Shown here in pieces: positions 9,081 through 61,836 of a stretch of 64,000 nt of DNA. Under the pieces are notes generated by a model. It worked only from the letters and a program-made list of their open reading frames with translations. It did not search any database and had not been told where the DNA came from. The stretch spans positions 42,430 through 106,429 of the forward strand of contig JAAOMT010000326.1 in the NCBI GenBank assembly GCA_016748015.1. The letters are read 5' to 3'. How positions within the stretch are numbered: position 1 is the stretch's first letter; the number at the start of each line of letters is the position of its first letter. This DNA comes from Geosiphon pyriformis uo1 (lineage: Eukaryota > Fungi > Glomeromycota). The position numbers were made by a program, and so were the translations under genes.

Positions 9081-9197
9081 TATTACAGATAATTATTTAG
9101 GGTCTCAAAACAAATAACAAATCTGTAACTTGGTGCTCAATAGCTTAAATAGTTGGTAATATCTGAAGATTTTAGACAAGTTATTTCTACAAACTAT
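9081..9197 (-). repeat. 3' end (U5) of a Gypsy LTR inserted in LINE copy 1 ORF1; rest lies in the gap 9198-9650
   Basis: Matches the U5 end of LTR A (1670-1780); no PBS follows. LINE ORF1 resumes at 9651. Confidence 0.8.
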
Positions 9198-19378: not shown

Positions 19379-19392
19379 TTATCTCTCTCTTT

Positions 19393-20155: not shown

Positions 20156-20208
20156 TTTCTGGATGGTATATATACTTGAATTTTCCAATTTAATTTGCTA
20201 TATGTTGT

Positions 20209-27372: not shown

Positions 27373-27433
27373 TTTTGTGTATCTCTGAAGTGCTCTGTCT
27401 CTGTGGATTTATAATCTTACAGGGAGTACCAAA

Positions 27434-28352: not shown

Positions 28353-28447
28353 GTATTAATCGAAATAATAATAATATATGCTATTTAATAATAAGAATTA
28401 TAAAGATAATTTCATGCTATTTAATAGCTAAAATTCTATTGGTAACA
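28353..28447 (-). repeat. 3' LTR of D, smaller (U3-end) part
   Basis: Matches 37274-37367 and ends GGTAACA next to the PPT. Confidence 0.92.
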
Positions 28448-28458
28448 TAATTTCCTTC

Positions 28459-29280
28459 TTAAGACTGAACTTCATCAAAATCCAAGCACTATTTGTTATA
28501 TTAAGATAGTGGTTCAAGATAATTAAAATGATCTGGTTTGAAAATTGTTGAAATTTCAGTTCTGTGAGCTTTCCAATGTATTGAATTTTTATTGAATAAA
28601 ATATTGAATTTTGTAGGACGTTTTCACAAGTGCTGAATAACTCATAAAGTTTAACTGCTGCTCTAAGTTTGTAGCAAGTATTTGTTGATCTAGCTGTTAT
28701 TTTGAATTCATTGTAAATTTGTTTTTATATAGTCTTAAGAGTAATGTTGGTTGTTTTAAGTTTCAGTTTTCATTTATAAAGTGTTTTTCTAATATAGAAA
28801 TATCTATATATAAAAGTATGTTTATTGTTCTGTTTATTGAGAAATAGTAGAAGTTTTTGTGAACTATGGCATTTGGTAAAATGTCAATAGGAACATATAA
28901 AAGGTTTTTTTTTAGTGCTTGCTTCAAAAGTTTTGGTAATTGAATTCCAGAATAACCTCTTGTTTTTCTTTTATAGAAGTGATAATTCTGAGAATTATTT
29001 ACTATTGGGGCTGTAGTTTTTTTCTAAATGTAATTAATTTGACTTCTATTAATCATTATAGATATGTCAAGAAGTGTTTTCAAAGTTAACATTAATTTTT
29101 GGAATATTTGTTAGATATTTCGAAAAATAATTATGATAAAAATGACTAATTAAATTTGAAAAAAAAAATAAAGAAAATTATTTTTGGGTAGAGTTTTTAT
29201 TTGTTTTTGAGTTTGAGTGTTTCTTATAATTATTTACTATTTTTTTGTTTTGTGTGTTATTAAAAAAATTATTGTAAAAA
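28459..29280 (-). pseudogene. D ORF3 (unknown helical protein), frameshifted
   Basis: YRYFYIRK..KLRAAVKLYELF..YIGKLTELKFQQF..LDFDEVQS*, aligning by eye with ORF3 of C, E and G. Confidence 0.65.
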
Positions 29281-29298
29281 TATGTTAAACTAAGTATT

Positions 29299-35200: not shown

Positions 35201-36351
35201 GTTTTTTAATCCTGCTATAAACTAATCTAGCATCTGGGCATCGGAATAGTAGTCATTGGTTTCTAATTGTTGAATTTGTCTAAGAAGTTTATTGAATTTT
35301 TCAAGATAGGTTATGACAGTTTCAGATGTTTTTTGTTTGATATTGTGAAAGTAATTGTGGAGAGTAATAGAGATGTTGTTGTTAGTGAATTGTTGTAAGA
35401 AAGCATTTTTGAATACTTGCCAGTTTCCAAATAATTCTTTTAAGTTTTCAAACTATTCTCCTGTGGTTCCTTGGAGAAAGTATAAGATTGCTTTGAGCAT
35501 TTTTGCTGCATTCCAACTATTTGTATTTCCTGCTTTTTGAATTTTGTCAAGCCATTCTTGAGGACTGGTATCATTGTCTTTACCAGTGAATTCTGGAATC
35601 TTTGCAATATAAGCAGCTGCTATTTCTTTTTTATTTTCTGTGGTTTCTTCTGGTTTTGATTCAGTTTTGATTCAGTTTCTTTACTTTCCAAGTTTTCTGA
35701 ATTATTACTTTTATTTTCTTGTAAGTAATTAATAATATTGGTGCTTATTGATATGAGTTTCTGCTATTGAGTAAGATTTCTAAGTGACTGAAAATCTTTT
35801 GGTCTGAAAAAACAGTTAAGTGGTGAATTTGGTGTTTGTGATTGAGCAAGTGAAATTAGAAATGGTGTAATAGAAAGTAGTAATTTGACACTGGTTCTTT
35901 GTTCAAGTGTTTACAAGTATTTGGCAATTGTCTTTGGTAGTATTGGAGTGTTTGGAGTGGTTTTTGAGTATTGGTTTACTTTTTGTTTGTCTTTGTTGCT
36001 TGTTTCAGTTTTTAATTTAAAGTCAAGGAAGTATTTAGACTGTACTAAATATGTTTCTTCACAATACTTGATAATATTAAAATTAAGTTTTTGGAAGTAA
36101 ATGACAAGTGTTTCACTATTAAGGTCTTTAGTTCTCAACTGTAAATAGTGCACTAAATTATTGTAAAGGTTGCTTCTAACTTCTGAAATGTTGTAATCTC
36201 CAAGAAGATAATTGTTGATACAGTTTTCAATGTATTAGTAAAGTGTCTTTTTAACAATTTCAATTCCATCTGGGATGTTAAATTTCTGCTTGCAATGGGT
36301 GTAAATTGACTGATAATACTCTAGAGTTGTTGTGTCTGGTGTGGTTGCTAC
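29299..36351 (-). pseudogene. pol: D gag-pol: gag, PR, Cys-rich domain, dUTPase, RT, RNase H, IN
   Basis: AYIAKIPEFTG (CA); LILDSRSTGSII (34037-34333); YFCKAC..PCL..VCDQTCQY (33188-33682); TGYDL..ASRSSLA..VIDTEY..KIAQ..RGMQSFG (32390-33097); HHCC and IDLV (30183-30464). Confidence 0.92.
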
Positions 36352-36396
36352 TTTGAAGTTGTTATTACTGTATTATTTCTATAGAAGAGTATCAAA

Positions 36397-37367
36397 TGTT
36401 ACCGAAGGTTTTTGGTCTCTTTTTTTGAATGCTGTTAATGTTGATTTGCTGTGAATTCACGTTTTTAAGAAGTAGTTGGATCTCCAGTAACTGAATTTAT
36501 CTTCAAATTATCTCCTATAATTTGAATTGCTGAGCTTATAAGTGAAATGGCCAATTTTGTGCCAGTTACTTTGTGTAATTATGTTGTAGTAAATGTCAAC
36601 TCTTTTCCAGAAATTGCTTATCTGAAAGCTCATTAAAAATGTGTAGTTACTTTGCTGTGAAAGTCAACTCTTCTACAAAAATCTTATTTATAGGTTACTT
36701 TAATGATTATGATAAGAAAAAAATAAAAAAATAAAAAAAATGTAAAAGAAATAAAATTCTGTTAAGAGAAACGTTTTCTATTCAGACCTGGAATTACTAA
36801 CAGTTTATTAAAATTGATAGCTAATCAATTTCGAAATGTTAGTTGGGTTTGAGAGAATTTTAAGTGTAATAATTTAAGAATTTGGTTTTTGAATATTTAA
36901 TTTTTATTTGAATGTGTAAAAGATGATTTGTTTTAATTAAGATATCTAAAGTAATACACTATGTTAAGATACTATAAAAAGATACATTTTCTTGAAGAGA
37001 AAGACTCTTCTTTTATACAACTTGTTGTAGTATTAGTCTTTGAACTTGTACTTTTCTTTTTGCTATAATTTGGATGAACAAAAGATACATTTCGGCAAAC
37101 TACAAGTTATTTTACTGAACTATTGATTATTTCGGACAATTTTTATTAATTTCAGCAAATTTTGACTATGTTAAATAGTTCAGAGTATTGTGTAATTTGA
37201 TTATCTTAATTTCTATTGTACAAATCGGATTATTGATTAAGTAATAATATTTGATAATTTGATTAAATAATAAGTAATAATCAAAATAATAATAATATAT
37301 GCTAATTAATAATAAAAATTATGAAAGTAATTTCATGCTATTTAATAGCTAAATTTTACTGGTAACA
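36397..37367 (-). repeat. 5' LTR of D (~970 bp)
   Basis: TGTTACC...GGTAACA; repeat of the split 3' LTR. Confidence 0.95.
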
Positions 37368-40300: not shown

Positions 40301-42148
40301 TAACATATTAAAAAAAAAGCTTATTCAAGCTTTAGTATTGATCTATCCAAATCACAACAAACCATTTATTATCACCACCAATACATCAGATCAAGCATTG
40401 GGAGCAGTACTATCTCAGAGAGAACCAGATAGAAAAAAACATCTAGTAATATATACCAGCCAAAGTTTGAGTCCAGCAGAAAAAAACTATAGAATATTAG
40501 CACTAAAACACTTAGCTATTTATTAGGTAGTCATGAAATAAAAAAATACTTAAGCCAGAAATTTAACATATACACTGATCACAAAGGATTGACATCAATC
40601 CAGAAACAAAAATTTGGAAATAACTGTCATGCCAAATAGAAAATAAAACTTTCACTATTTAAATATACAATATATTATAAAAAGAGAAAAAAAAATAAAA
40701 ATGCTGATGGTTTGTTGTGAATAAGACAAATTTAAGAACATTTCAAACCAAAAATATAACAAAAGATGAATATACAAAAATATTAACAACTCCAATATTA
40801 TATAAATACTTAACAGTTTAAAGAGAAATTATTTTAAAAAGAATGAAACAACATCAAACAACAATTTAAATATTTTATCACTTACCAAAATATACTTTAT
40901 AGGAAGAACAAAAGAAATCTAGATCAACCAACCAAAGTAATTACAGAGCCAGAGAAAGAGGCAATATTGTTCAACATGTATTCAAATCCAATAGCAAAAC
41001 ATTTTTACAAAAAAACAACCATGGAAAGAGCCAAAAAACAATATTATTGGCCATTAATGTACCCAGACATTATCTAATATATTTAAAATTGTGATGCTTG
41101 TCAGAGAAAAAAAGAAACAAAACCAAACAAACTATTAAGACCAATCAAAGTAGAACAACTATTTGATCAAATTAGAATTGATTTAGTTAGACTATAAACA
41201 ATTACCAGCAGAGGCAACAGATATATTGCAGTAGCCATGAATTATCTTACTAAATGGCCAGAAGCAAAAGCCATTCAAAGAACAGATACAGAATTTATTG
41301 CTGAATTCATTCATCAAGATCTGATTTGTTAATACAGATGTCTAAAAAAATTACTATCTGACCAAGGAACTCACTTTGTAAATAGAACATTAACAGAATT
41401 AAGTCAAAGATTTGGAATTAAAAAACTATTATTATCACTATATTATTTACAAACAAATGGCTTAGTTGAAAGATTCAATAGAATATTGTGTAAAGCAATT
41501 GCCAAAATTAGTTAAGAAAATCAAGACAAATAAGATTTGTTTATACCATCAGTATTATTTGCTTATTAGACAATGAAACAAGACACTACACAAGCAACAC
41601 CATTTGAATTAGTATATGATAGAACAGCAACATTACCAATAAAGATAGAAGTTAATACATATTCAATTAAACCAATAACAAAAGACAATTTACAAAAAAT
41701 ATTGTTAAAAAGAACATATGACTTAATAGAAACACTAGAAAACAAATAGTAAAAAGCAGCTGATAATATTTAAAAATTACAAAAAAAACAAAAAAAAAGA
41801 CATGATAACCAATTACCAGATAAACCAATTGAATTCAAGATTGGAAATAAAGTACTTTTATATTATATCAAAGTGGAAAAACAATAAAATAGAAAATTTG
41901 ACCCCAAATGGGATAGACCATTTTACATAAAAGAAATTTTAGGAAATGAAGCTTATAAATTAAGATAAAACAACAAAATCTTAGCCAAAGCAGTATATGG
42001 TGATTGACTGAAATCATATTACCATATAGTATTATCATCTACTAATAATATTCCACAACTGAAAGTACAATGAATACTAGTCCAACCAGATGAAATTTCA
42101 TGAAATCTAAAACCAATCATAATCATTGAACCAGACACATCAAATTGA
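37368..42148 (+). pseudogene. pol: C pol continuation: Cys-rich domain, dUTPase, dUTPase-like, RT, RNase H, IN
   Basis: Colinear with G 50910-55874; dUTPase ~38480-38905; YLNN (eroded YLDD) ~39933; NTSDQALGAVLSQ (RNase H); IN ~40770-42148. Confidence 0.92.
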
Positions 42149-43698: not shown

Positions 43699-43819
43699 AT
43701 AGTCTTAACTTTTGAGCTCTTAAGTGTTTGGTTGGTGTTTTTCTCATCAAAGATAGCCCTATTACTATAATCAAAACTGGTTTCCTTAATCAAATACTCC
43801 TTTTTCATGTCCACATTAT
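43699..43819 (-). pseudogene. LINE copy 2 ORF1, continuation beyond C; runs into gap 43820-44788
   Basis: Homologous to 61545-61660 and continues the ORF1 sequence cut at 13637. Confidence 0.82.
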
Positions 43820-45277
43820 NNNNNNNNNNNNNNNNNNNNNNNNNNNNNNNNNNNNNNNNNNNNNNNNNNNNNNNNNNNNNNNNNNNNNNNNNNNNNNNNN
43901 NNNNNNNNNNNNNNNNNNNNNNNNNNNNNNNNNNNNNNNNNNNNNNNNNNNNNNNNNNNNNNNNNNNNNNNNNNNNNNNNNNNNNNNNNNNNNNNNNNNN
44001 NNNNNNNNNNNNNNNNNNNNNNNNNNNNNNNNNNNNNNNNNNNNNNNNNNNNNNNNNNNNNNNNNNNNNNNNNNNNNNNNNNNNNNNNNNNNNNNNNNNN
44101 NNNNNNNNNNNNNNNNNNNNNNNNNNNNNNNNNNNNNNNNNNNNNNNNNNNNNNNNNNNNNNNNNNNNNNNNNNNNNNNNNNNNNNNNNNNNNNNNNNNN
44201 NNNNNNNNNNNNNNNNNNNNNNNNNNNNNNNNNNNNNNNNNNNNNNNNNNNNNNNNNNNNNNNNNNNNNNNNNNNNNNNNNNNNNNNNNNNNNNNNNNNN
44301 NNNNNNNNNNNNNNNNNNNNNNNNNNNNNNNNNNNNNNNNNNNNNNNNNNNNNNNNNNNNNNNNNNNNNNNNNNNNNNNNNNNNNNNNNNNNNNNNNNNN
44401 NNNNNNNNNNNNNNNNNNNNNNNNNNNNNNNNNNNNNNNNNNNNNNNNNNNNNNNNNNNNNNNNNNNNNNNNNNNNNNNNNNNNNNNNNNNNNNNNNNNN
44501 NNNNNNNNNNNNNNNNNNNNNNNNNNNNNNNNNNNNNNNNNNNNNNNNNNNNNNNNNNNNNNNNNNNNNNNNNNNNNNNNNNNNNNNNNNNNNNNNNNNN
44601 NNNNNNNNNNNNNNNNNNNNNNNNNNNNNNNNNNNNNNNNNNNNNNNNNNNNNNNNNNNNNNNNNNNNNNNNNNNNNNNNNNNNNNNNNNNNNNNNNNNN
44701 NNNNNNNNNNNNNNNNNNNNNNNNNNNNNNNNNNNNNNNNNNNNNNNNNNNNNNNNNNNNNNNNNNNNNNNNNNNNNNNNNNNNNNNNTATATAAAATTT
44801 TTATTAATTAAAAAATTTTTTTAAAAATATTTATGAAATTTTTTTGAAAATTATAACTTAATTTAAATATATTTTTTGTTTTTCAAGATTATTATTTATT
44901 TGGATTTTTTTATTTTTAATTAATGTTAAAAAATAATATAAATCTAATAATTTTTTAACAATTTTTAACAAATTAATATTTAAAATAAAATTTTTTTAAT
45001 AAAAACTTTTAGATTTAATTATTTAAAATTTAAAGCAATAAAATATAAAATAAAAAACTATTATTTTATTTGTATTTATTTTTTTAGTCTTAAAATATTT
45101 AATTAAAAATATAAAAAAATTTTACTTTTATTATTTGTTTTTTTTTTGTTTTTTTTTGCATTTAATGAGTAAAGTCTAGATACTGCCTAGTACTATATAT
45201 TACATTAATAATTTAAACTAGGTGCGAATCATGTATTTGCTATACATGACCAGCCACTCAGGCCAATTAAGACAACA

Positions 45278-47323
45278 TTAGATATTTATATGAATAGAAA
45301 TCATGTCCCCAATACCTAAAAAAAACAAACAAGACTTACAAAACCCAAAACTAATACCAAATACATTGACAATACCCAATAACCTAATCACACCAACTAA
45401 AAGTACTACAGGAAAACCAGAAACTAAGACAGAAACAGAATCATCATGTAGAATTAAGTCACTCTTTTCCATAATAGTTCAGTATTTGACACGCACTAGC
45501 CAAATATTATTCCAGAACACAAGACAAAATTTGTGCACAAAAAACACAATATTCTGAACTACAACTTTAGGATCCTTAAAAACAGAAACAGATTCATGAT
45601 ATCACTTATTGAAAACAAAGCCTTTATACAGAATTGTACCAACAACAATATTGAAAATACAAGTAGACAACAATTGCAAGACACAAAAAGAAGAGCAAAA
45701 TAAACCCAAGCATACCTCCCAAGCAAATGTATGAATTTCTATCAACTGAGCATAACCAGCAACATCAAAAGAGCAAGAAAAAACATAGTCTAAAACCTTA
45801 ACATTACTGCAGAACAAATATATCACATTGGGGTAACACTTATTATAAAGTTGTTTATATACTACAACAAGAAGATGATGATGCAATGTTTTCATAAAAT
45901 ATGACTGAAAGCCAGTAGTGCATATATTGGTAAAACCAGCAGCCAAGTAAGAATCAGAATGCTACACCAACAGAGATCTGAACCAATCAATATCAGCACA
46001 CAGGCTATCTATCATGATCTGAGAACCAGAACCAATTTTCCAATATACATAGTGAATAGATCAAAAAATACCACAAACAAAATATCTAGAATTACTGGAA
46101 ACTATCATATTATTGGCTTTAAGAAAATGTTTACTGACCATATGAGATAGACGCTTATCGAAGAAAGCATCAGCATGCTTATTGCTAAAGACACCAGAGT
46201 AATTTTTAATTTTAATTTAATTAACATCCAAATTTTTACAACAAATAACATTAGCAATATGGCAACATTTAACTCAACACTGATTTTTGAAATCCAGACA
46301 AGCCAACACAAACTCTGATTTGTATGCATCCAAAGCAATCTGGCTGTCTGAAAATAAGTCAGCAGAATAAGAAAAAGAAATACACTTGAGAGCCAGAGCA
46401 ATGGCCTGCAACTCTGCCATCATAGAAAAAACCAAACCAAAAACTCTCACACCCAGACCCAAATCAATGTCTTCAAAAAAAACAGCAGCACCAGCCACCA
46501 TATCAGAAGTTCCCAGACCACTCAGAGATTCATCCATATATACAGAAAGACAAGCAGTATTAACATACAATAAATTAACCCCAACAACACCAAATTCATA
46601 AGACTAAAGAATATCAGAAGAGAAACAACCATTCAAAAATGAGGGACAAGCAAAAAGAGAAACTTTACTACCAAGAAAACAAACAGAAAGCTCAAACCAA
46701 ACAAAAACAAGGCCATAAGAGTCCAATTACTTCCACTGCTTGAAGATTGTCCAACTGAAAACAGCACCATGCTTGTCATACAGCTGGTTTACAAAAGTAA
46801 CTTCATAATGTTGAAAAGAAGAGACATATTTAAAATAATTAGTTTTGCCAAGAACAAAAGACATAGGAATACCACTCCAAAAATAAAAAACACTGGCCAG
46901 AGAGCCATTCAAAGACAAATTACATCCAGAAAAAATGCAGACCATATCAGCCAAAAAATTGTCTAAGAGGTTAACTCTTACACAAGCCGGAAATTGCAGA
47001 AGGTGGTGAAAATACCAGCTAAAAACCTGGAGATTATAAGACTTGTGAGAAAATAACTGGCCCAAAATACTCAATAAATTCACAAAAAAAACAAAGAATG
47101 CTGACTTGCTTTCAGTCTGAATTTGTTCAAAAGTCTTTAAACCATACAAGGAAGGTTGATAGATTGTATCAGTAAAAAAATCAAGTAGGAGACCAAATCT
47201 AGACTTCAAGTCTTTGCAAATCAGAGCATCTTATTTACTACAAATACTAACAAGAACAAAACTGAATTGAATTTTATAATTGACAATAGGAAAAAAACTG
47301 CTGACACCAAATATGTAAACTGT
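45278..47323 (-). pseudogene. LINE copy 3 ORF2, C-terminal part (RT thumb, RNase H, Cys motif)
   Basis: SVYMDESL..GAAVFF..MAELQAIALAL..FSDSQ.ALD (46274-46570); YLFCSNVKVLDYVFSC (45602-45946). Confidence 0.9.
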
Positions 47324-48165
47324 TGTTACTCATAGAAATATAGGGAATAGAGATTAGCATAGCCAATCAGAAGTAGACATAGTAAAATGTGGAATTCCAA
47401 GATTCTTTTCAAGAATTACAAGATTCCAGAAATTACAGAATTCTCACAAGGAATCACAGGATTACAGAATTCCAGGATTCTTCTCAAAGGAATTGCAGGA
47501 TTCCTGTTGTGGAGAATTGAGGAATTGAGGAATCTCAATTATATATATATAGCAGTAGGATTAGAAGCTGAAAAGACAGACCTCTCAGTTTAAATTTAAT
47601 CTAAGCAATTCTCCAAATCACAATCATCTAATAAATAACTATTTGTTATCTCAAATCCATTTCCACTATTAACACTTCATGTTAATAGTAATTGACACTT
47701 AACCATACTGGAACAATAGCTCTTAATCATGGCTATTGATGAAATACTAACTTGCAAATTGCCTTGGCTTATTTCTTTTCTTTCTTTATTTTCTTTTCTT
47801 TTTTTATTTTCTTGCTTTGATTTTATTGTTGTTTACTAACTCTATTAAAGATTAATGCACGGGGCATTGACGTCAGGATAAATGTGACTGGTAAAAGACC
47901 CAGAAATAAGAGTAGAACACTCGATTAAGGATAGCTTACCAGGAGGAATACCGGCCATCAAGCTGAAAAAAAAATTGATGAAACTGTGGTTTTGGAAAGC
48001 TACGAATAAAACTATCACCATTGAATCTCTGTCTATTATACAAAGAACTCAACCAAAACCTTCAAATAACAATACCTTCAGATATTACCAACAATATTAT
48101 ATTAATTGAGCACCAAGTTACAGGTTTGTTATTTGATTTGAGATCCCAAATAATCAATTATAACA
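47324..48165 (+). repeat. 5' LTR of G
   Basis: TGTTACT...TATAACA; U3 tandem repeats ~47390-47540; TATATATA ~47540-47551. Confidence 0.97.
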
Positions 48166-48167
48166 TT

Positions 48168-48185
48168 TGGTGCTCCCTGTAAGGT
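48168..48185 (+). promoter_or_regulatory. Primer binding site TGGTGCTCCCTGTAAGGT
   Basis: 2 nt after the LTR and starting TGG; equivalents in A, C, D and E. Complement fits a tRNA ending ...GGAGCACCA (elongator Met or Ile-UAU type; inference). Confidence 0.85.
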
Positions 48186-48226
48186 ATAATCTTACAGAAA
48201 ACCAGTACCAACAACTCCATCCAAAA

Positions 48227-50520
48227 GTGGCAGAATCAGAAAATATAGGAGCAAACCATTTAGGATTTGTGAAATCCTTATTTCAACACTATTGTCAGCA
48301 CTTGGGGTTAAACCACAATCATATATCTGCCAAATCAGCCTTTAATTTCTACGTTAACAAAAAAATTTTTTTTTTGTTAGGAACACCAGTAAATACTAAA
48401 GCAGCAAGGGAAACTTTCTACAGAGAATTAATTCAAAACACCAACCTATCAACAAATCATAATTTCGCATTCATTATTACTGAGATCAACAAAAAAATTG
48501 AACATCACATCCAACAAAGGTATCCAATTACATACACTAATAAAGGCAAAGGAAAACTACAAACACCAGCAGTAACTTCCAGAAAGATACAACTACCTAC
48601 TTGGAAGAAGACAAAAATTAAATCACCAACCAATCCATCTTATTACTATACACCCGGAAGCACCATCAACATTGTATTAACAGATGTGTTCACATTAAAC
48701 ATGACATCAGTATTTGGACAATTCCCATTCCAAAGTAAACAAAGAAAAACAGAATTATTAGGACCATACAGTAAATACTTCAAAAGATTTAAATCGTGAT
48801 CACCAACACCATCAGGAATTCAATCACTGCCGTCTCAACCAGACTTTGAAACTGCTACCCTGCGGGAACTATTGGAAGAAGAAGAGGAAGAAGAATCAGA
48901 AGATCAGGAATTTACTTACCAAAACCTGATCCTTGAAAACCCAGAATTTGGAACCCCAAACATTTAAACTCAGCGAGAAAATCCAGAAATTGAAACTCTG
49001 AATATTCAAGCACTGCAAAATCAAAACCCTGAAGTAATTAATCAATACTTACCACCAGTTATTATTATCAATCAACCACCAGTGGAACCAATTGGCCAGC
49101 CCATCCAAATACCGAACCAATAAAATCAACAACCACCCCCAGTACTATCTTAACAACAACTACAACTTCTACCACAGCAACAACAACAAATGGCATATGC
49201 ACCAATTGCAAAGCTCGACAAATTCACCGGCGAAGAAGACAATGCACAAGTTTGGCTAAATAATGTAAAAAAAGCCATTGCAGCCAATGGATGGAATGAC
49301 GCCAGAGCCATGCAAGCCATACCCTATTTTCTCAAGGATACAGTGGACTCATAGTATCAAAGTCTGGTTAACAAACCCCAAGATTTCAATGTCTTCAAAC
49401 TAGAATTTTTGAGATACTTTAGTAATAACAACAGCATCAACAGATTAGCCAACACTTTTACTACAATTAAACAAGAAGAAACTGAAGCAGTTACCACATA
49501 TCTGAGATGCTTCTATAGGAATCTGTGACAAATCCAAGCAATTAATGCTAATTATTTCACAGCACTATGCCCATTGCATCCAGCCACTCTTTAGGATGCA
49601 GTCACACACGCCAGAGATTTTGAATCTGCTGAATTAAAAGCCAATCATGCTCACGTCATGAACCTAATGATGAATAAATCATCTGAATTGGATTCTAAAT
49701 TGAAACAATTCAGTGATTCAATTAATCAGAAATTAGAGAGATACTTAGCTAACAATTGTAAAATTTATTAACCACCACAATGATGCAATAATTCAGGAAA
49801 CGCAAATCATTTCCAAAATCAGTCGTGTTTATCATTATCATCAGCAGCACCTAATTAGCAGTGGCAGCCAGAAACGCGTGTTTGCCACAACTGTAGTAAA
49901 CAAGGACACATAAGAGCAGACTGCAGATTTTATAGCAACAATTTATGATCGGGAAATCAATATCAAAATCCTGATCGCAGATTTCAAACTCCAAATTGTT
50001 ATCCAAATCAAGATCAAACTACTTACCTACCAATGATGCAGTCACAAATCTATTAACCATCAGTATATCAAACTCCAGTCTATCAAACACCCGCAATTTA
50101 TCAATTACAACCACAAGTAATTTATCAGCCGCAACCTCAAGTCATTTATCAATCCCAACCACAAATTCAAACACAGCCACAAAACTTGCCTCAAAATGGA
50201 ATCCAAAGGCTAAAAATGATACAACAAAACTGGCAATTGGTGATGGTAGTCCACCAACTGATCCCCAGTTCGTCAAATCAGTAAATAGGATCTCGTCAGG
50301 GGAATTTGGGTACTGGTGCCACCCAAAACCCGAATTTCCAGAACTATTTAAGTTTCCTGGTCATCCCAAAAGATGTTCAACCCAATGACCTGGAAACCAA
50401 CTTCCAATTAACACTTACCAGCAATATCCTACCAGCCACCATCACAGAAGACAAGTCACTTGCAGCCATATTTCCATTTGAAATTAAAGAACCATCAGAA
50501 GTTCCTTTGTTTAGTGGAAT
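48227..50520 (+). pseudogene. gag: G gag: N-terminal extension, capsid, CCHC knuckle, Q/P/Y-rich linker; in frame with pol
   Basis: ORF 48167-48799; MAYAPIAKLDKFTGEED from ATG 49190; CHNCSKQGHIRADC ~49882-49924; reads in frame into ORF 50306. Confidence 0.92.
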
Positions 50521-50539
50521 CACTATTGAGGAAAAACCC

Positions 50540-50880
50540 ATCATGGCGATGTACACCAATGCCAAAATTGATGGCCATTCCATCAAGCTTATTCTGAATA
50601 GTGGGTCAGCAGACAGCATTATCACACGACAACTCATAGACCAATTAGATTGTCGAATTGATTGTGCTGCCAGCACCAGAATCATAACAGCCAATGGAGC
50701 AATCAAAACTCCCATTGGCGAAATTGATGATCTACCCATTGAAATTAATGGCATTACTGTATCAATCAAGGTACTAGTAATGGAAGCAACACAGTACCAA
50801 GCTCTCGTTAACAACAACTGGTTGTCCAAAACCAACACAATGCTCAACTGGAACATACAGGAACTCCAACTTAGCCAAAA
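50540..50880 (+). pseudogene. G aspartic protease
   Basis: LILNSGSADSII (DSG eroded to NSG), ITANG, ALVNNNWL (ancestral LVGNDWL). Confidence 0.92.
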
Positions 50881-51289
50881 TGACCAACACACGCAAGTAC
50901 CGGCCACATGTGGCCATTTCAAACCAAACAATGTCACATCATTAATGCTGCTTATTGATTTTGAGGAGGAAAAACCAAAGCCTACTTGGGAGGCGTACCA
51001 AGTATTGTGGGCCAATATTGAGCACAATGAGCTACCACTAATTCTAGACTGGGAAGAAAAGAACAATAAAAAAGGAAAAGAAATAGAAACAGAAGAACAT
51101 ACCTGGGAAACCACTATTAATGCCTGGAACAACAACAATGAAAGTAAAGCAATGTCAACCAACTGGGAAGAAAAAGGGAAAGGAAAGGAGAAAGAAGAAG
51201 ACTTACCTGAAAAAGCCAACGAAGCCACAGAGAAAATAACCAGTGGCTAAGAAAGAAAATACTTATGGGAGCCAGTGAAGAAGCCACCT

Positions 51290-51945
51290 TACATTCCCTT
51301 AAAATATCAGAACTGTAAGAAGAAACTTTCTTCCATGGAAGCATGGATTGCGCTAGACGAAGACTATTGGATGCGAACTCACTACTACTGCAAACCATGC
51401 CATAGAGAACGCTATGATTACCCAAAACAACAAAGCAAGTGGGACAATGAACCATATCTTGCTTGTGGTCAACAGTTACTCAATGAAGAAATGTGGAACA
51501 ACATTCCTGGTCAAGGAGGAATGTGCAACACTTCATGCCAATACACGATCCTCATCAGTGATTAGGTGAGTTGCGGCATGCCCATAACAGCCACCTGGCA
51601 CCAAGCAATCTCTTGCTTAGAAGGTTACTCACATGATGAAGACAAAATCTGGTGAATGGCCAATGCCAAAGTAGAAAGTGCTTCACCCAGTGAAATTCTG
51701 GAAATCAAGAACAACCTTTCAGAACCAACAAACATTGTTTTGGTTCTCAACCTGGATGCCTTTCTCAACTTAGAAAACAGCCCAGAAGAATTTTATCAAC
51801 ACTATCAGAACTTAGCACCCACCAGAAAAGAGCAGGAACAAAGATTGGAAGAAATAAACACCTGACTATGTGATCATTGTTTGATCCTATGTAACTTTTA
51901 GTATTGCAATGAGTGTGACCTCATTTACAATCCACCACCATGCAT
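51290..51945 (+). pseudogene. G Cys-rich putative Zn-binding domain inside Pol
   Basis: YYCKPCH, LACG, MCNTSCQY, LCDHCLILCNF*YCNECDL; conserved in C, D and E. Confidence 0.7.
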
Positions 51946-52169
51946 GATCTACATGATCCCTGAAGAGGAAAAACCAATTAGCAGCTGTGCATCGGAATCA
52001 GAATCGATTTTCAATTCTGATTCAAACTCTGACAAGGATGATAATGAAAACACCAGTTCCAGCTCTGTTCAAAATAGAATTAACAATAACAATGATTCCA
52101 ACTTAGATTTAAACTTCAATTTAAACTACAAACAATATATCGTGATCTCCGACCTTACCAAGAAACAGA

Positions 52170-52600
52170 AACTTAAATGGTTCAACAATAACAATAAAGG
52201 TATTATATCAGAACATGTACATGATATGGATGCTGGATTTGATCTGAGATATCCCAGAAAAGAGGCCATTAAATTGGAACCACATTTGTGCATCTACATT
52301 GATCTGAAAGTAGCTTTAGAAATTTCAGCAACAACAATGATTCAACTAGCATCTAGGAGTAGTTTAGCAAAAAGAGGGATAAACATCAGAGGAGGAATAA
52401 TTAACACAGGATACGTAGGAAATATCATTGCTATGCTACAAAATGATTCAAAAAAGGCCTATATTATAAAGCCAAATAAAAAGATAGCACAAGCAATATT
52501 CCTGTCTCTAGTGAAAATAGCTCAGTTAGTGTCAGTGGGAAATAGAGAAGAATTAGGGATAACAGCTAAAAGAATACAGGGATTTGGATCAATGGGTAGA
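52170..52600 (+). pseudogene. dut: G dUTPase domain inside Pol
   Basis: All five trimeric dUTPase motifs: DAGFDL, ASRSSLA, GGIINTGYVGNI (D>N), KIAQ, RIQGFGSMG. Confidence 0.93.
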
Positions 52601-53149
52601 ATAGATATACCAGTTAATATGGCGGAAGAAGAAATTGTTAGCCAAAGAGAATTTATCTCAACCAGTCAAGCAATTTTTATTCCACCATATGACCAATACA
52701 TAGTAGAAATAGAGAGGAAGATGAAGGATCAAAACCAAATTTTTGAAGCAGAGACAAGTCTTTACGAGTCAGGAGAGATTGGACTTATCAATCTTTACAT
52801 ACCAGCCAAAAAGTATAGCCACATAAAAATTCCCATCTACAATAACACTGGAAGTGTTGTCCAGATACTAGAAGAAACTACCATTGGATATTTGACTACA
52901 GAAATAGAAGATTAACCACCAAGCACCATTCTAGACTTTCCACAGCTTTGTGGATATGTTAATATTACATCACAAACAATATATGGATGAAGCGAATGTT
53001 ATTTGCTCCAACCAGAACAATTGGAACAAATAAACATGGAAAACTTAGATCCACTCCAATGTATGCAGCTCAAGATATTGCTCAACCAGTTCAACGACAT
53101 CTTTGCCAGTGAAAATAAGTTTGGCCGAACTGATATCATTCAGCATCAA

Positions 53150-55874
53150 ATCAAGACTGGAGATACAATGCCAATTAAACAAAGAGCATACAGAATGCCA
53201 CCAGCCAGCCACAAGATTATTTGTCAAGAGATAAACCAAATGCTTGACAACGGACTAATTCAACCATTAATAAGCCTCTGGTCGTTATCAGTGGTACTTG
53301 TCCATAAGAAGAATAGCAAAATTCGATTTTGTATGAACTACAGAAAACTCAATGGCGTAATTTGTGAAGACAGCTATCCAACTCCACAAATACAGGAATT
53401 ATTTGATGCTTTCGGTGGGAACAAATAGTTCTCAACATTAGACTTAGACAGTAGTTACTGGCAAGTAGCCATGGATCCAGCCGACAAAGAGAAGACAGCA
53501 TTCACTACTAGAGAAGGGAATTTCAAATTTGAAGTGATGCCATTTGGCTTAACCAATACTTCAGCCACTTTCCAATGACTAATGGAAATTGTATATACTG
53601 GCTTATTATGGAAATCAGTAATTGTATACTTGAACGACACCAATGTATTCTCAAAAACATTTGATGATCATCTTCATCATCTTCAACAAGTGTTTGAAAG
53701 ACTAAGAAGAACAGAACTAAAGTTAAATGCAACAAAGTGCTTCTTTGACAAGACAGAACTAAAATTCTTGGAACACATAGTCAGCAAAGATGGCATCAAA
53801 ATGGATCCAGAGAAAATAGAGATAGTAAAAAACTTTCCAGTGCTGACCAATATGACAGAACTGAAATCATTCTTGGGATTCACCAGCTACTATTGACGTT
53901 TTATCAAGAACTTTTCTAAGATAGCACAGCCACTCAACCAACTGCAAACCAAGAATACAAAATATGAATGAACAGAAAGTTAACAAGAAGCTTTTGATAT
54001 TCTGAAAAGAAAGCTCATTCAAGCTCTGGTACTAATCTATCTAGATCACAGCAAACCATTCATCATTACCACTGATACATCTGGCTAAGTATTGGGAGCA
54101 GTACTATCTCAAAGAGGATCAGATGGCAAAGAACATCCAGTAGCATATGCCAGCCAAGATCTAACACCAGCCAAAAAAAACTATGGAACACCAGAACAAG
54201 AACACTTAGCAATCTATTGGGCAGTTTTGAAATAGAAAAAATACTTGAGCCAAAAGTTTGAGGTGTATACAGATCACAAAGGATTGACATCACTCCAAAA
54301 ACAAGAATTTGGAAACAGAAAACAGTCAAGATAGAAAATAGCACTTGTACCATATACTTATATTATACATTATAAAAAGAGAAAAGACAATGGAAATGCC
54401 GACAGTTTGTCACAAATAAGACAAATCTAAGAACATTTCAACCCAAAAATATAACAAAACCAAAACAATACCCACGAAAATATAACAAAAGATGAACACA
54501 CAAAAATATCAACAACTTCAACATTATATAGATACTCAACAATTCAAGGAGAAATTATCTCAACCAGAACAAAAGAGAATCAAACAACAATCCAAATATT
54601 TTATCATTCACCAAAATATACTTTATCAGAAAAATAGAAAAGATTCAGATCAACCAACCAGAGTAATTACAGAACCAGAAAAAGAGACAATACTGTTCAA
54701 CATGCACTTAGATCCAACTGCAGGACATTTTCATAAAGAAACAACCATGGAAAGAACCAGAAAGAGATACTATTGGCCATTAATATATCCAGAAATCATC
54801 CAATATGTGCAAAATTGTGATGCTTGTCAGTGAAAAAAAGGAACAAGACCCAGTGAATCATTAAGACCAATCAAAGTGGAACAACCATTTGACTGTATTG
54901 GAATTGATTTAGTCAGACCATTAACAATTACCAGCAGAAAAAACAGATACATAGCAGTAGCTATGGACTATCTTACTAAATGGCCAAAAGCAAAAGCAAT
55001 TCAAAGAGCAGATGCAGAATCCATTGCCAAATTCATTTATCAGAATTTGATTTGTTGACATGGATGTCCAAAAGAATTGTTATCAGACCAAAGAACGCAT
55101 TTTGTGAACAGAACATTAACAGAATTGAGCCAAAGATTCGGAATTAAGAGACCATTATCATTACCATACCATCTACAAACCAACAGATTAGTCAAAAAAT
55201 TCAACAGAATATTGTGTGAAGCAATAGCAAAACTCAGCCAAGAAAACCAGAACAATTGGGATTTGTTCATACCATTAGTATTATTTACTTATCAGACAAT
55301 GAGACAAGATACTACACAAGCAACACCATTTAAATTAGTGTATAGGAGAACAGCAATGTTACCAGTAGAGAGAGAAATTAATACATATCTAGTTGAACCA
55401 ATAACAGAAGAGAATTTTTAAGAAACATTGTGGAGAAGAACATATGACTTAATAGAAACATTGGAAAACAAAAAAAGAAAAGCAGCTGATAATATTCAAA
55501 AATCACAAGAAAAACAGAAAGAAAGACATGATAGTCAACTACCAGACAAACCAGTTAAATTCAAGATTAGAGACAAAGTACTCTTATATTGTACCAAAGC
55601 GGAAAAACAATGAAGTAGAAAATTTGACCCCAAATGGAACAGACCATTTCACATAGAAGAAATTCTAGGAAATAGAGCTTACAAATTGAGACTAGATAAC
55701 AAAATCTTAACCAAAGCAGCACATGGAGATTGACTGAAACCATATCACAACACCATATCACTCTCCATTAGTAATATTCCACAATTAGGAGTACAAAGAT
55801 TACTAGTCCGACTAGATAAGATTCCATGAGATCTGGAACCAATTATTATAATTGACAACAACACATGAAATTGA
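53150..55874 (+). pseudogene. pol: G reverse transcriptase, RNase H and integrase
   Basis: RFCMNYRKLN, YWQV, MPFGL, YLND (YLDD), FLGFTSYY; HPVAYAS; H..PTAGH..CDACQ, GIDLV, SDQRTHF. RT-RH-IN order defines Ty3/Gypsy. Confidence 0.96.
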
Positions 55875-56555
55875 TCCATCAAAAGAATATATAAAGACAT
55901 AGTAGATGTGACAGAAAATATCAGAAAAATGAAGATTACAGACAACATTCACTCATTAGCACAACTTTTTCAATTGATCCAACACCAAAAAATGAAAATT
56001 ACAATCAATTAACAAACCATTCGATATCAAAATACCAGAAAGATATTATAACACAGAAGACAGAAAATACCAGAAAATACCATTGACAAAATCATTGCAA
56101 AAGTAAAAGTGGCAATAAAAAAATTGACAAAAGAGTCAATATATCAAGAGTTAACCAAAGAAACTTGGAATTGGTGGATACAACAATTTCCAAGAAAATA
56201 TTGTTATTTTTACTTGGGACAATATGTGAATATTCAGAATTTATACACAAATAAAACAAAGCGGTTATTTGACACAACAATACTACAACAACTAGAACAT
56301 TTTGTGGGGAAAAACAACTTATCCACACAAGCTCGAGCTATATACCAAATACACACAGCATTCCAGGATTAACCAGAACTTTTACTCAGCAAAGCAATGG
56401 ATATGGTTACCAGTAATTAATTGGGAAAGATCACCAATGCTTAATTTGAAGAATTATAAACTCAAATAACACAAATAATTCTTAAAAACAAAATCTAGGA
56501 AATACTTCAAGAGGGAGAATTAAAAGAGTTGGATTTTGACAGAGCTCAATATTAA
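55875..56555 (+). pseudogene. G ORF3 (unknown helical protein, ~227 codons)
   Basis: Includes ORF 56109-56372 (WNWWIQQFPRKYCYFYLGQ..QARAIYQIH); ends ELDFDRAQY* in the PPT. Confidence 0.78.
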
Positions 56556-56565
56556 AAGGAGGAAA
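56554..56565 (+). promoter_or_regulatory. Polypurine tract of G
   Basis: AAAAGGAGGAAA 3 nt before the 3' LTR. Confidence 0.85.
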
Positions 56566-56568
56566 TAA

Positions 56569-57410
56569 TGTTACTTATAGAAATATAGGGAATAGAGATT
56601 AGCATAGCCAATCAGAAGTAGACATAGTAAAATGTGGAATTCCAGGATTCCTCTCAGGAATTACAGGATTTCAGGAATTACAGGATTCTTACAAGGAATT
56701 GCAAGATTCCAGAATTCTAGGATTCCTCTCAAAGGAATTGCAAGATTTCTGTTGTGAAGAATTGAGGAATTGAGGAATCTCAATTATGTATATATAGCAG
56801 TAGGATTAAAAGCTGAAAAGACAGACCTCTTAGTTTAGATTTAATCTAAGCAATTCTCCAAATCACAATCATCTAATAAATAACTATTTGTTATCTCAAA
56901 TCCATTTCTACTATCAACATAAAATGTTGATAGTAATTGACACTTAACCACACTGAAACAATAGCTCTTGATCATGGCTATTGATGGAATACTAACTTGC
57001 AAATTGCCTTGGCTTATTTCTTTTCTTTCTTTATTTTCTTTTCTTTTTTTATTTTCTTGCTTTGATTTTATTGTTGTTTACTAACTCTATTAAGAATTAA
57101 TGTGCGGGGCACTAATGTCAGAATAAACGTGACTGGTAAAAGACCCAGGAATAAGAGTAGAACACTCGATTGAAGATAGCTTACCAGGAGGAATACTGGC
57201 CATCAAGCTGAGAAAGAAATTGACAAAACTGCAGTTTTGAGAAGCTACAGATAAAACTATCACCATTGAATTTCTGTTTATTATACAAAGAACTCAACCA
57301 AAACCTTCAGATAACAATACCTTCAGATATTACCAACAACATTATATCAATTGAGCATCAAATTACGGGTTTGTTATTTGATTTGAGACTCCAAATAATC
57401 AACTATAACA
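56569..57410 (+). repeat. 3' LTR of G
   Basis: Same length as, and colinear with, 47324-48165. Confidence 0.97.
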
Positions 57411-60038
57411 CTGTTTATTTGAGATTGTCTTTCTCAAAACAAGATTGACAAAAAACTGAACATTTGAATACACTTTAGCCAAGCTAAGTTTCGACAAACT
57501 CTTAGAAGACAAAAAAATACCCAAATAATGCTAAGGTTCTCCTTTTTTGGCAACAGAAATAGGCAAGCCACTAACAGTCAGATAAGAGTTTGAAACCCAG
57601 CAGTTAATGAAGATGGCCACAGTCTTGTTATTATTTATAGAAATGTTATTAAACCTAAAGAATTCTCTAGCAATATTGAGGATGTATTGTGTAGTAGTTT
57701 GGCTACTACCAATCCAAATTGTATCATCGATAAAAGCATCAGCAATAAAAAATAATGTCAACCCAGTCTGAGATTCTGCCTGGTTAGACTTGAAGACAAA
57801 ATGAGAATTCAACCTGTAACTACACACACTCTTCTGCCTTTTAACCTCACATAGAAGCAAATCATAGAATATACACCAAAGAAAAAGTAAGAAAACTTCC
57901 TCTTGGTCTAACCCATTATGAACATGATACCCATCAGTTAAGCCAAAGTCTGTCATTACTTTGTTAACATGACCATTGTAAATACTACCAAAAAATCTAA
58001 TAAACTTGTCACACATCTTGATTTTAACCAAATTCCTCCTAAGACATTTCTAACCAACAGAGTCATAGGTCTTATACATGTTCTGCAAAACCAGTCACAG
58101 TTCTCAGTTTTTCTCCAAGGCATCTTTGACCACTGAGCCAATGGCAAAAATAGGCGATTGCATTGTTGTACCTCTCAAAACAAAGAAATTGTCTTCATGT
58201 AAAATATTATAAGTGCTGCAAGCTAAAGAAATCCTATCTGAAAGATCTTTGGAAAGGATTTTGTGAGCTGTTTCAATCAAAGCAATAAGACAGATATTCA
58301 TAAAAACACTTTCTCATTCATATGACTTAGAAATTATTAAAACCCAAGTTTCTCTTTAAGACCCAAATACTAATTCACAAATCAAACACAGATTCAAGAA
58401 CACCAAAAACATATCCAAAACTGAATTGTTACAGTGTTTCCACAATTCATTAGAGATGCCAGAAAGACCAGCTGCTTTCCCATCAAACAGATTTAAGACC
58501 ACAACAAACATATTATCAAAACCAATCAGACACATTACATTAGAAAATGCATTATTGAAAACATATTCCAAAGGCTGATATTGGTGAGTCCAATCATCAG
58601 AAATATCAAACACCATTTCACATTTCCTAGTCCAATTCTTCATAATCTCATCTATCTTAAATTTAACCAAATCAGGCTTTAAAACCAACTCATCACTTAC
58701 AACCAAATGATCTAACACCATCTTGCAAAAAAAATGCTCCAATACACTCCTGATGGTACAACCCTTATCTAATTCAAAACTTTCTATTCTACTGGTAATG
58801 GCCCACTTGATATAAGATTCTTTAGCATGCTTAAATTCTAGCAACTTGAAAAAACAGTAAGACTTCTTTGCTTTTGCCAGTCCAGAATGAATATCATCAA
58901 AAATAGAACCTAAAAGAAAAAGAGACTTTACTTCTGCTGTGCCATTAGAATCAAGCCTATCCCATATACTCAGCAACAAAGCAAAATCCTTACTTAAAAC
59001 CAAACAAGAAGCTTTCACCAGCCTAAATACCAACAATTCTAGCTTATAGAACTTAGAAGACAATTTGATAAAAACACTGTCATAATTTTTGAAACATTTC
59101 TTTTTAAATGTTCCATTGGCTGACAAAATCATAATTCTATAAACAATGTCTTACATTACATCCAGATCTGAAGACCTCTCAGCTACCACAAACACATCTG
59201 AAAACATAATAGCATTAGCAGCTGTAACATCTCTAAATTTGCATCACTTTCTTTCATCAGCACTTCTAATGTTAAACTTCTAACAATTCTTGTTCACCTG
59301 CTTACACTACAAGGACAGCTGAACATCCAACAAACCATCCAGACTTACAGAAACAGAAACAGCTACATAATCAGTATCAAAATAATCCACAATACTAGTC
59401 ATATTGTGACCTATTATCACATTGATTAAATTCAAAAAAACAAACACATAATCAATTGTCTTAGCAACATCACAAAAATTGCATTATATTGGTAACTTAG
59501 CAAATAAGCTTCTAGCTAAAGAGTTTATTAGACCCAAATCAAAGCATTTCCTGAAACTGGCACATTTACAAAAATCATTCTTATTAAAGTCACCATCAAG
59601 AATAACAAAAGAAGATTCATTCACAGTTTTTGCAATAAGAGAATTGATGTCAACAGTCTGAAAGAACTGAACTACCAAAGAAGCACCAGCATATAGCCCC
59701 AAGATCAATACAGAAAACTTATTCTTGAAAAGCAACTTGACAGAAAAAATTTAACTAGGCACTTCACAAACTTTGCACACATGACAAGCCAAAAAAATGT
59801 CCATAATAATAGCAATGCCTGAATCCAAGTAACCAGAATTCACACCAAAAGTAAAGACATGAACACTATCAAACTTGTTTATAATCTATGAATAGATTTT
59901 ATTTTTCAATTTAGTTTCAATAACAATAAAAATCAAATTGTTCATATTTTTATGCCAACAAATTATATTACCCTACTTTGCAGGATTGTTCATTCCCTTA
60001 ATATTGCAAGTGACAACTTTCCAAACCTTACTATTCAT
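57411..60038 (-). pseudogene. LINE copy 3 ORF2, N-terminal part (APE and RT)
   Basis: MNSKVWKVVTCN.., ILDGDFN, GKAAGLSGISNELWKH, IALIETAHKILS, GLDQEEV.., AFIDDTIW. Confidence 0.93.
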
Positions 60039-61836
60039 TAAGAAAGACGAAGAGTAGAAACTGAACCAGCATTGTCTTTTTTAGCCGAAAGGCTCATAAC
60101 TATGATTAAAAGATTATTCAATGTCTCTTCAATTCTCAAGATAACTGAAGAATTAACTACCACCACTCCTATAACAGTCTTACTACTAGTGGCCATATCT
60201 GAATCCTCACTTATTACTATATCTGCCCCCTAATTCTGTGATGAAGGAGTCATCAATGACTAATATTCAGAACTAAGCTGGGAAACTGTTGGCTCAAGTG
60301 TATCCAACTTCTTAGCCAGCTTATTAATACACTTTGTGAAGCTGGAAAGACTGTGCTCAAGAGCAACAAACTTATTATTTAAATTCAAAAACACCAATGA
60401 GATAGGTTTTATCTTTGAAAAAGAGCCAGCATTTAATAAAACATTCTAAACAGAAAGAAAAGAGAAAGAAGACCCACCAGCAATTTGTGCCTATAAGACA
60501 CCACTAAAAGAAACAGAATAAGCAACTGGAGCTGAGCATTTAGCATAAATGGTAGCCAGCCTGTTTTTATCAGAATCTGAAAGAGTTTTTTATAATAAAG
60601 CACCAGAAGAAACATCTTTCTTCTCACCAACAGGACAAGTCAAAGATATATAGCCTAATTTCCCACACCCAGTATACTTAGCTAGAACAAAACAAAACCA
60701 TTATAAATTGGCTCTTTTTAGAACAAGTGTGGTCTTCATGACAGCATCCAATGACTCAGCAGAATCAAAACAGACAGCAATACATCTGGTCCAGGCATAA
60801 AAAACTGGATAATAGTCAATAATACAAGTTTTCTCACCCACTAAAGTAATGTAGTTCCAAATATTATGTGTGTTGGTCTCCATTGGCAGAGTGTATAAAA
60901 AAGCTTTGTAAACATCTCTTGCATTCTATGATTCTTTGTCTACATCAGATCTAGCAACATGCACCATATTTTTTCCAATTAGGATAGACTATTTTGCTGT
61001 GACTAAATCAGCATGATCAACCTGTTCAAATTCAACCACTGCTTTTTGCCACAGCCCTACCAATTGCATTTTGATTGACTTAATTATTCCAAACTCAGAT
61101 AACACAGCATGCACAGTCTTAGTTGAAGTTCTAATTGGAATTTCTTTCAACACTACAGCCTGATCCAAATGTTCAGATGATTTTTTGAGATTAGTATTTA
61201 CCAAAATCTTTGCTTCTTCAGCTTTTTTAGAAGTCTGCACCAAACTTAATTCAGAAGTGAATGTCACTTTAATGATCCCAACAAATTTTGAGAGAGTAGA
61301 GGCCCCTCCTCTCCAAAACTATTGATTTTTGAAAACAACTTTTTGACCACTTGAAGCTTTTTTTGAGAGAATTTTCTAATTATTTTGTTCAACCCAATAT
61401 TCAAAGCAAAAGATTTGTGAACAAAAATATTGACCAGATTTTTTAAAGGTGGGAGGAGTTTTAATGAAGTGTTCAAAAGAATATTATCTTTATCACCACT
61501 TAATAAAAAATTAATTTTTCCCAATGGCTTACCTAATGCTTTTTTGGTTTTGATCTTTGAACCAGTAGGTGTTTGATTAGAATCTCTTTCAGCAAAAGCA
61601 CTGCTTTTACCATAATTGAAACTGGTCTCTTCCACCAGACATTTCTCCTTCATATTGATACTTTCAGATTCAGTGGTATCACCAGTTTTTAAACTCCATA
61701 AGCAACTATTCTAAACTTTAGGACCAATATTTTTATTACCAGAACCATTTTCTAAAACACCACTTCTCTTTTTTTTCTTTAGAAGAACAGATCTGAAGCT
61801 ATTACTAGAACCAGAAACTTTAATAGCCTTCTTCAT
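60035..61836 (-). pseudogene. LINE copy 3 ORF1
   Basis: ATG at 61836 (MKKAIKVSGS); RRM-like VVLKEIP..VLSEFG.IKSIKMQLVGLWQKAVVEF; knuckle remnant ~60635-60680. Confidence 0.85.

Follow-up and report, generated by a model that had tools for sequence, protein, structure and literature searches.

In the usual Ty3/Gypsy retrotransposon, integrase (IN) is the final part of the Pol polyprotein. Fungal members of this group that bear a dUTPase have been described in Postia placenta (PosPlaTy3-5), Phanerochaete chrysosporium, and Tuber melanosporum (Tmt1; PMC2864245; here and below, papers are cited from parts of their texts). Long terminal repeat (LTR) elements make up 41.2% of the genome of the fungus Geosiphon pyriformis (PMC11952901), and our literature search found no account of what they encode. 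We analyzed a 64,000-nt stretch of the G. pyriformis uo1 assembly GCA_016748015.1 (contig JAAOMT010000326.1, positions 42,430 to 106,429; hereafter, the window), which contains a Ty3/Gypsy element, G, and three relatives, C, D, and E. These are decayed copies of four families in one fungal Ty3/Gypsy lineage, and they are tricistronic: Gag-Pol is one long open reading frame, integrase is a second, and a further one (ORF3) is the third. An earlier reading of this DNA (hereafter, the original prediction) had proposed a lineage that retained extra modules as its families diverged, which the module matches in C, D, E, and G support; it had also noted correctly that dUTPase-bearing fungal Gypsy elements, including Tmt1, were already reported (PMC2864245).

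Architecture and decay of the elements

The window is made up of stacked, AT-rich transposons (CpG observed/expected = 0.13), among which we delimited the four elements by self-comparison and terminus mapping. Direct LTRs with TG...CA ends, a primer-binding site (PBS), a polypurine tract (PPT), a target-site duplication (TSD), and the order gag-protease (PR)-reverse transcriptase (RT)-RNase H (RH)-IN mark the lineage as Ty3/Gypsy (Metaviridae). Pfam families detected in G, with stops read as X, were, in order, Retrotrans_gag, zf-CCHC, an aspartic protease, dUTPase, RVT_1, RT_RNaseH, Integrase_H2C2, rve, and SH3_Tf2-1. The closest solved structure to the RT-RH of G was that of Ty3 (E 8e-68), followed by chain 8r0s (E 4.5e-39), with retroviral RTs behind. 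No chromodomain family was found in the frames of G at E <= 0.1, and IN ends about 40 residues past its SH3 module, so that the element does not classify as a chromovirus.

The original prediction assigned to C, D, E, and G a single order of N-terminal extension, capsid (CA), zinc knuckle, PR, Cys-rich domain, dUTPase, spacer, RT, RH, IN, and ORF3. In tblastn searches from G, C and D matched the extension, CA, PR, Cys domain, dUTPase, spacer, RT, RH, IN, and ORF3, and for these three elements the order stands. E matched strongly for CA, PR, the Cys domain, dUTPase, RT, RH, and IN, more weakly for ORF3 (E 9e-5) and the extension (E 7e-3), and not at all for the spacer; its extension is alignable in a multiple alignment and the spacer of a database protein of the E family aligns at 22%, which extends the order to E in qualified form. 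The zinc knuckle was scored in G only (E 0.032) and was seen by eye in D. The LTRs do not follow the claim that those of D are unrelated to the others: it is the LTRs of E that match no other element's at E < 1e-3, whereas those of D contain a 90-120 bp segment common to the C and G LTRs (69-73% identity, E 2e-14 to 4e-5). A fifth member of the lineage, element A, is truncated by the window edge; its extension and capsid are present, and its LTR is related to those of C and G.

The Gag-Pol frame of G runs without a frameshift for 2084 codons, from 48176 to the end of RH, with 28 stops. RH ends at a TAA in five of five sequences (G, C, D, E, and L001, a metagenome relative), and IN then opens with its own ATG (ATA in E) after a gap of 61 nt in G, 30 in C, 10 in D, 55 in E, and 24 in L001, in phase +1, 0, +1, +1, and 0, respectively. 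The predicted order RT-RH-IN is present, but RT-RH and IN do not form one ORF, and in none of the five sequences is integrase the last part of Pol; the departure concerns how the protein is expressed, not the ancestry of the element. Neither a fixed read-through nor a fixed frameshift fits gaps that vary from 10 to 61 nt and lie in phase 0 or +1, which suggests that ribosome restart or a dedicated mRNA would supply the integrase. The RH/IN junctions lie at 54428-54494 in G, 40733-40768 in C, and 771-801 in L001; the gap in G is 31 nt longer than that in C and contains a short repeat. The integrase of G comprises a YPYY-like N-terminus, H2C2, a DDE core, and a GPF/SH3 module. At its other end, the Gag-Pol frame opens at a stop at the LTR end and crosses the PBS (48164-48190 in G, with equivalents in C, D, and E), with an ATG there only in C; the start codon may be non-AUG or masked by G-to-A damage.

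The two LTRs of one element are identical at insertion, and the damage seen in LTR pairs therefore hit integrated DNA. Transition:transversion counts for the LTR pairs of the four elements were 64:4, 99:1, 110:7, and 87:3 (94-99% transitions), with cytosines hit in all dinucleotide contexts and on both strands. C-to-T changes affected 20-57% of sites at CA, CC, and CT, and a higher share of the few CG sites. This decay is of a repeat-induced point mutation (RIP)-like or dense-methylation type without the usual CpA preference, and its occurrence in all contexts points to a host process, one that earlier work on related fungi did not detect as RIP (PMC8647823). Stops in the four copies (179) lie mostly opposite Gln (54), Trp (33), and Arg (26), the pattern expected of C-to-T damage. 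The original prediction suggested that the elements' cargo countered deamination, which fails for the dUTPase: we rejected it as a defense against the observed damage on timing, since the damage came after integration and the action of a dUTPase is confined to removing dUTP from the pool of nucleotides (PMC4531489). All four target duplications (CTGT, ATAG, GTGG/GCGG, and GTAA/GTAT) are NCGN or decayed NCGN, a number too small to test against chance. As many as 88,629 contigs of one DNA run mapped onto G at >=80%, covering 30 of 30 bins, which indicates a high-copy family; no RNA run was among those listed as containing the element.

Accessory modules and selection

Judged by sequence and motif content, the enzyme module ahead of the spacer is a trimeric-type dUTPase, matching 55 PDB dUTPase-family sequences at E <= 0.001. 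Motif patterns IV, II, I, III, and V were found in 76, 49, 34, 28, and 16, respectively, of 78 family dUTPase domains. The canonical residues of all five motifs are the family majority, yet they are eroded in each copy, and none of the 30 best copies had all five patterns intact. An exact-pattern scan, which misses distant relatives, found no dUTPase relatives in viral contigs. The Cys domain, just ahead of the dUTPase, has three predicted zinc sites and a predicted helical middle. Each of its 12 Cys columns is retained in 11-15 of 13-15 rows, and the exceptions are nearly all Cys to Tyr, the change that G-to-A gives. In 15 members, the Cys domain had no credible Pfam match, whether to zinc-finger families such as LIM, PHD, ADD, CXXC, TRASH/FCS, and RING or to any other, and the Gag extension domain, for which matrix homology was considered, had none either; exact-pattern scans, blind to distant relatives, confirmed no Cys-domain relatives in viral or metagenome contigs. 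The predicted Gag extension held in its first half, a domain of about 110 aa that is present in all four elements and aligns across five at 19-60% identity to G, but not in its second half.

ORF3 homologues are about 210-290 aa long with at most two Cys, match no Pfam family, and are predicted, at low confidence, to be helical. The highest 19-residue Kyte-Doolittle mean was 0.27-1.29 in eight of eight homologues, i.e., no transmembrane segment, and no credible Env family match was found for ORF3. An Env identity was rejected on the first of these grounds, and the element is not an errantivirus or env-bearing Gypsy; the forecast of a non-Env ORF3 was borne out, and the accompanying label 'virus-like' was overstated. 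Database matches to ORF3 were Geosiphon pyriformis hypothetical proteins in 65 of 65 cases, and a profile search of 1.84 billion proteins returned 111 matches, of which 20 were looked up (17 Geosiphon and three metagenome proteins); many of the others are among the 65 Geosiphon proteins. ORF3 is recognizable at 19-36% identity in at least five Geosiphon lineages and the three metagenome proteins, in the same position wherever this is visible. The metagenome locus L001, which encodes one of these three proteins on a contig too short to cover the modules upstream of RT, reads RT-RH, stop, IN, 317 nt, an open ORF3 (230 aa, starting at its own ATG), PPT, and LTR start. The ORF3 frame crosses the PPT into the first LTR bases in L001 (3088-3148) and in the E family (window 28440-28470); in G, C, and D it ends at the PPT. 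The ESM Atlas gave no usable match for the Geosiphon ORF3; for the metagenome ORF3 it gave, below the recognition threshold and as leads only, first a cluster composed mostly of Mucoromycota proteins (0.94, 98 members) and then a closterovirus coat protein (0.93). Exact-pattern scans of viral contigs, which miss distant relatives, found none for ORF3 or for the L001 integrase.

We measured selection on transversions only, because about 96% of post-insertion change is transitions, comparing codon position 2 with fourfold sites in protein-guided alignments pooled over G-C, G-D, and G-E (pairs that share G). Position 2 was depleted in the dUTPase (0.070 vs 0.292, p 1e-6), the Cys domain (0.136 vs 0.339, p 1e-4), the extension domain (0.204 vs 0.516, p 3e-4), ORF3 (0.191 vs 0.476, p 4e-3), and the spacer (0.109 vs 0.263, p 0.013); the extension linker was the sole module without a significant deficit (p 0.075). 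In a frame-blind G-C DNA alignment the deficit was significant for the Cys domain (p 1.6e-3) and the dUTPase (p 9e-4). Purifying selection on the modules is clear for these two and weaker for the extension, spacer, and ORF3.

Coordinates (window positions) of element G, its parts, and related elements
Feature	Positions	Strand	Remarks
Element G	47324-57410	+	LTRs 91.9% identical; 4-bp target duplication CTGT on both flanks
Left TSD of G (CTGT)	47320-47323	+	right copy 57411-57414
5' LTR of G	47324-48165	+	TG...CA ends; 91.9% identity to 3' LTR
PBS of G	48168-48184	+	Gag-Pol frame reads through; no ATG in G
Gag N-terminal domain of G, ~110 aa	48221-48544	+	helical-looking sequence pattern; homologous in A, C, D, E, G
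Extension linker of G	48545-49189	+	low-complexity, P/Q/E-rich; conserved G-C only
Capsid (Retrotrans_gag) and CCHC zinc knuckle of G	49190-49927	+	Pfam
Aspartic protease of G	50543-50884	+	Pfam
Cys-rich domain of G, ~215 aa	51296-51952	+	six CxxC/CxxxC pairs (12 Cys) and a conserved His
dUTPase of G, trimeric type by sequence	52178-52615	+	PF00692, E 4e-15, 56 bits vs cut-off 22
Spacer, dUTPase to RT, of G	52628-53029	+	beta-rich pattern, no catalytic motifs
RT-RNase H of G	53099-54430	+	ends at the shared TAA, which closes the Gag-Pol frame
Integrase of G	54492-55868	+	separate ORF with own ATG; 458 codons, 6 stops
ORF3 of G, ~210 aa	55929-56555	+	ends at PPT; homologues begin 10 codons earlier
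PPT of G	56556-56568	+	
3' LTR of G	56569-57410	+	
Element C	13638-43698	+	G-like architecture; LTRs 88% identical; TSD ATAG (13634-13637); interrupted by E within its post-protease linker (break 17597/37372)
Element E	17598-37367	-	G-like architecture; nested in C; LTRs ~90% identical; TSD GTGG/GCGG (17594-17597/37368-37371)
Element D	18479-28352	-	G-like architecture; nested in the 3' LTR of E; LTRs 87% identical; TSD GTAA/GTAT (18475-18478/28353-28356)
Element A	1-2560	-	truncated by window edge

The minus-strand element into which G is inserted (45000-47319 and 57415-61600) is probably a long interspersed nuclear element (LINE) and contains a long RT-like frame (RVT_1, E 0.0017); copies related to this LINE-like element occur at the left of the window (4500-9100 and 11500-13640). 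An exact 379-bp duplication across an N run in the 5' end of C (14224-15001), an exact 320-bp tandem repeat at 3339-3958, and gap-like stretches at 43700-44820 and about 9100-9750, in which G+C is very low or both strands have frames free of stops, are likely assembly artifacts.

Proposed functions and alternative explanations

Directly established are the layout, the common stop that closes RNase H, the identity of the dUTPase, selection on the modules, and decay after insertion; from these we infer the roles of the dUTPase, Cys domain, and ORF3 and the mode of integrase expression. We propose, with a probability of roughly 55%, that the window holds dead, C-to-T-damaged copies of a three-frame lineage in which the dUTPase kept new DNA free of uracil while the Cys domain and ORF3 were nucleic-acid-binding helpers of replication. 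Translation of Gag and Pol in a single frame would bring the Cys domain, dUTPase, and spacer into the particle in numbers like those of Gag. The dUTPase, packaged with RT, would keep dUTP low while reverse transcription proceeds, as described for the dUTPases of retroviruses (PMC4531489), and the three-zinc domain just ahead of it would, by analogy with the betaretroviral nucleocapsid-dUTPase fusion, hold the enzyme on RNA or cDNA at the site of reverse transcription. ORF3 would be a soluble helical regulator rather than an envelope, and its target would be the RNA, cDNA, or chromatin of the element.

Several results weigh against this proposal. No intact full-length element was found. The frame-blind deficit fell short of significance in the extension domain (p 0.13, and 0.06 when compared with A), in its linker (0.25), in the spacer (0.12), and in ORF3 (0.30), and ORF3 showed no deficit between G and L001 (54/184 vs 4/14). 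Protein-guided alignments lean toward conservation. No Cys domain outside Geosiphon was found among the matches listed: all 120 of them, out of 138, were Geosiphon pyriformis hypothetical proteins. Structural models of the Cys domain (pLDDT, the predicted local distance difference test score, 52.6; best Z 6.4) and of ORF3 (pLDDT 44.5; best Z 4.1) were low-confidence and gave no fold match, which does not demonstrate a new fold for either. Finally, a plain tether has no obvious need for fast divergence, and between G and C the Cys domain, ORF3, and the extension diverge about 10 times faster than RT (transversion rates at positions 1-2 of 0.12, 0.19, and 0.13, vs 0.01 for RT and dUTPase).

This fast change, in modules that are yet under selection, would also be expected if the Cys domain and ORF3 were counter-defense or chromatin-reading accessories in an arms race with the host, active against silencing or in steering to CpG sites, like the accessory genes of complex retroviruses. 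Relaxed constraint accounts for it equally well, and we think the arms-race explanation unlikely. The CpG depletion of the window and the NCGN-type target duplications are in its favor, as are trees of the four window elements and of the near-full Cys proteins that have a dUTPase as well (13 of 18), in which the Cys domains fall into well-supported subtypes while the dUTPases of these families branch in a nearly star-like way, and in which the Cys domain of D clusters with that of C (95/95) while its dUTPase falls outside the G/C group. Exchange of the Cys domain between families was nevertheless not significant (approximately unbiased test, p 0.13, the alternative not being rejected; D is a long branch). 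Against counter-defense, too, the Cys domain has no credible match to CXXC, PHD, ADD, or any other Pfam family, lies within Pol rather than in a free gene, and did not spare the copies in the window, all of which are heavily mutated regardless. The boldest form of the idea is decidedly unlikely in our estimate: a complex fungal metavirus, tricistronic with a stand-alone integrase, whose three-zinc reader and helical ORF3 pass from family to family and act on the chromatin or silencing of the host, for instance by recognizing the state of CpG sites so that insertions are steered or protected, in a genome where integrated cytosines are mutated in every context.

At the other extreme, the dUTPase could be the only real accessory enzyme, with the extension, spacer, and ORF3 being ordinary linkers or captured remnants inherited by descent. 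The frame-blind results for these three modules agree with this, as does the variability of metaviral Gag N-termini, which are unrelated between lineages (PMC11011659), but the extension domain can be aligned across five elements, and ORF3 persists in its place across lineages and is open in L001; we regard this explanation as very improbable. The spacer itself had been predicted to form one of two tandem dUTPase folds, which we did not confirm: there is one clear dUTPase domain. A true second fold that forms a pseudo-trimer with the first, as in herpesvirus monomeric dUTPases, would fit the spacer's dUTPase-like length, its position directly adjoining the dUTPase, its retention in all families, and a local profile alignment in which, across 44 columns, dUTPase motifs III-IV line up with the final strands of the spacer. 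The local score (15.8), however, was equalled by 3 of 60 column shuffles and the global score by 11 of 60, HHalign gave a probability of 0.2-3.8%, and no Pfam or PDB dUTPase match was found for the spacer; the first domain has all five motifs, so that a partner is unnecessary. We therefore hold a second fold to be rather doubtful, and view the spacer, from its sequence pattern, as likely a catalytically dead beta-domain and possibly an old dUTPase copy. Over these alternatives, we favor the proposal of a dUTPase with nucleic-acid-binding replication helpers.

Comparison with known systems

Our literature search found no description of this module combination, in agreement with the original prediction (the repeat libraries Repbase, Dfam, GyDB, and REXdb lie outside that search), and no paper on a dUTPase in Geosiphon pyriformis. 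The lineage is not described in the sections consulted of a survey of fungal LTR elements (PMC3248453) or of a transposon survey of arbuscular mycorrhizal fungi, where 'dUTPase' occurs 0 times (PMC11952901), and Geosiphon is not named in the corresponding part of PMC12543289. Several hundred Geosiphon 'hypothetical protein' gene models (at least 120 + 65 + 53, overlapping) are pieces of these elements, and apparent expansions of dUTPase or protease families in Geosiphon may therefore be retrotransposon debris. The orphan families and the three-cistron plan are open to expression and testing.

Among fungal elements, PosPlaTy3-5 likewise has its dUTPase in Pol, between PR and RT, but the fungal dUTPase elements are described together with chromodomain elements (PMC2864245), whereas those studied here have no chromodomain, a Cys domain before the dUTPase, a separate integrase ORF, and a conserved ORF3 after it. 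The bdelloid rotifer elements Juno, Vesta, and TelKA also combine a dUTPase between PR and RT with non-Env ORF3s, and Juno has an extra zinc knuckle beside the dUTPase; in these animal-hosted elements, however, the ORF3s are family-specific (GDSL esterase, DEDDy nuclease, transmembrane/coiled-coil, or Env), in contrast to the single orphan ORF3 common to all families here (PMC5408684). Planarian Burro/GYPSM1 resembles the lineage in carrying several extra domains in one polyprotein, with a dUTPase-like domain between PR and RT and a zinc-finger motif, but its cargo shows MATH, BCL-2, SUMO-like, and Env homology and it is about three times longer (PMC6431247).

A YPYY-like motif, seen by eye ahead of H2C2 in five of five sequences, resembles that of the YPYY-motif Gypsy integrases (Athila/Tat-related, Gypsy-1-I_RO, and DGLT-A1) and Ginger1, with which the GPY/F module and TGT termini are shared, and placement near this group is a lead; Ginger1, itself a DNA transposon, also makes a 4-bp CG-centered target duplication (PMC2836005). 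In the betaretroviral nucleocapsid-dUTPase fusions of Mason-Pfizer monkey virus and mouse mammary tumor virus, a trimeric dUTPase is likewise immediately preceded by a zinc-binding domain, but theirs is a CCHC nucleocapsid joined by frameshift, and ours an unrelated 215-aa domain behind the protease, making this an analogy rather than homology (PMC4531489). Taken singly, several features have been published before: a dUTPase placed between PR and RT, ORF3s that are not Env, and odd Gag N-termini. What is added here to the Ty3/Gypsy repertoire, and to the dominant class of repeats in Geosiphon, is a pair of protein families that have no known relative, together with an unusual plan of three cistrons.

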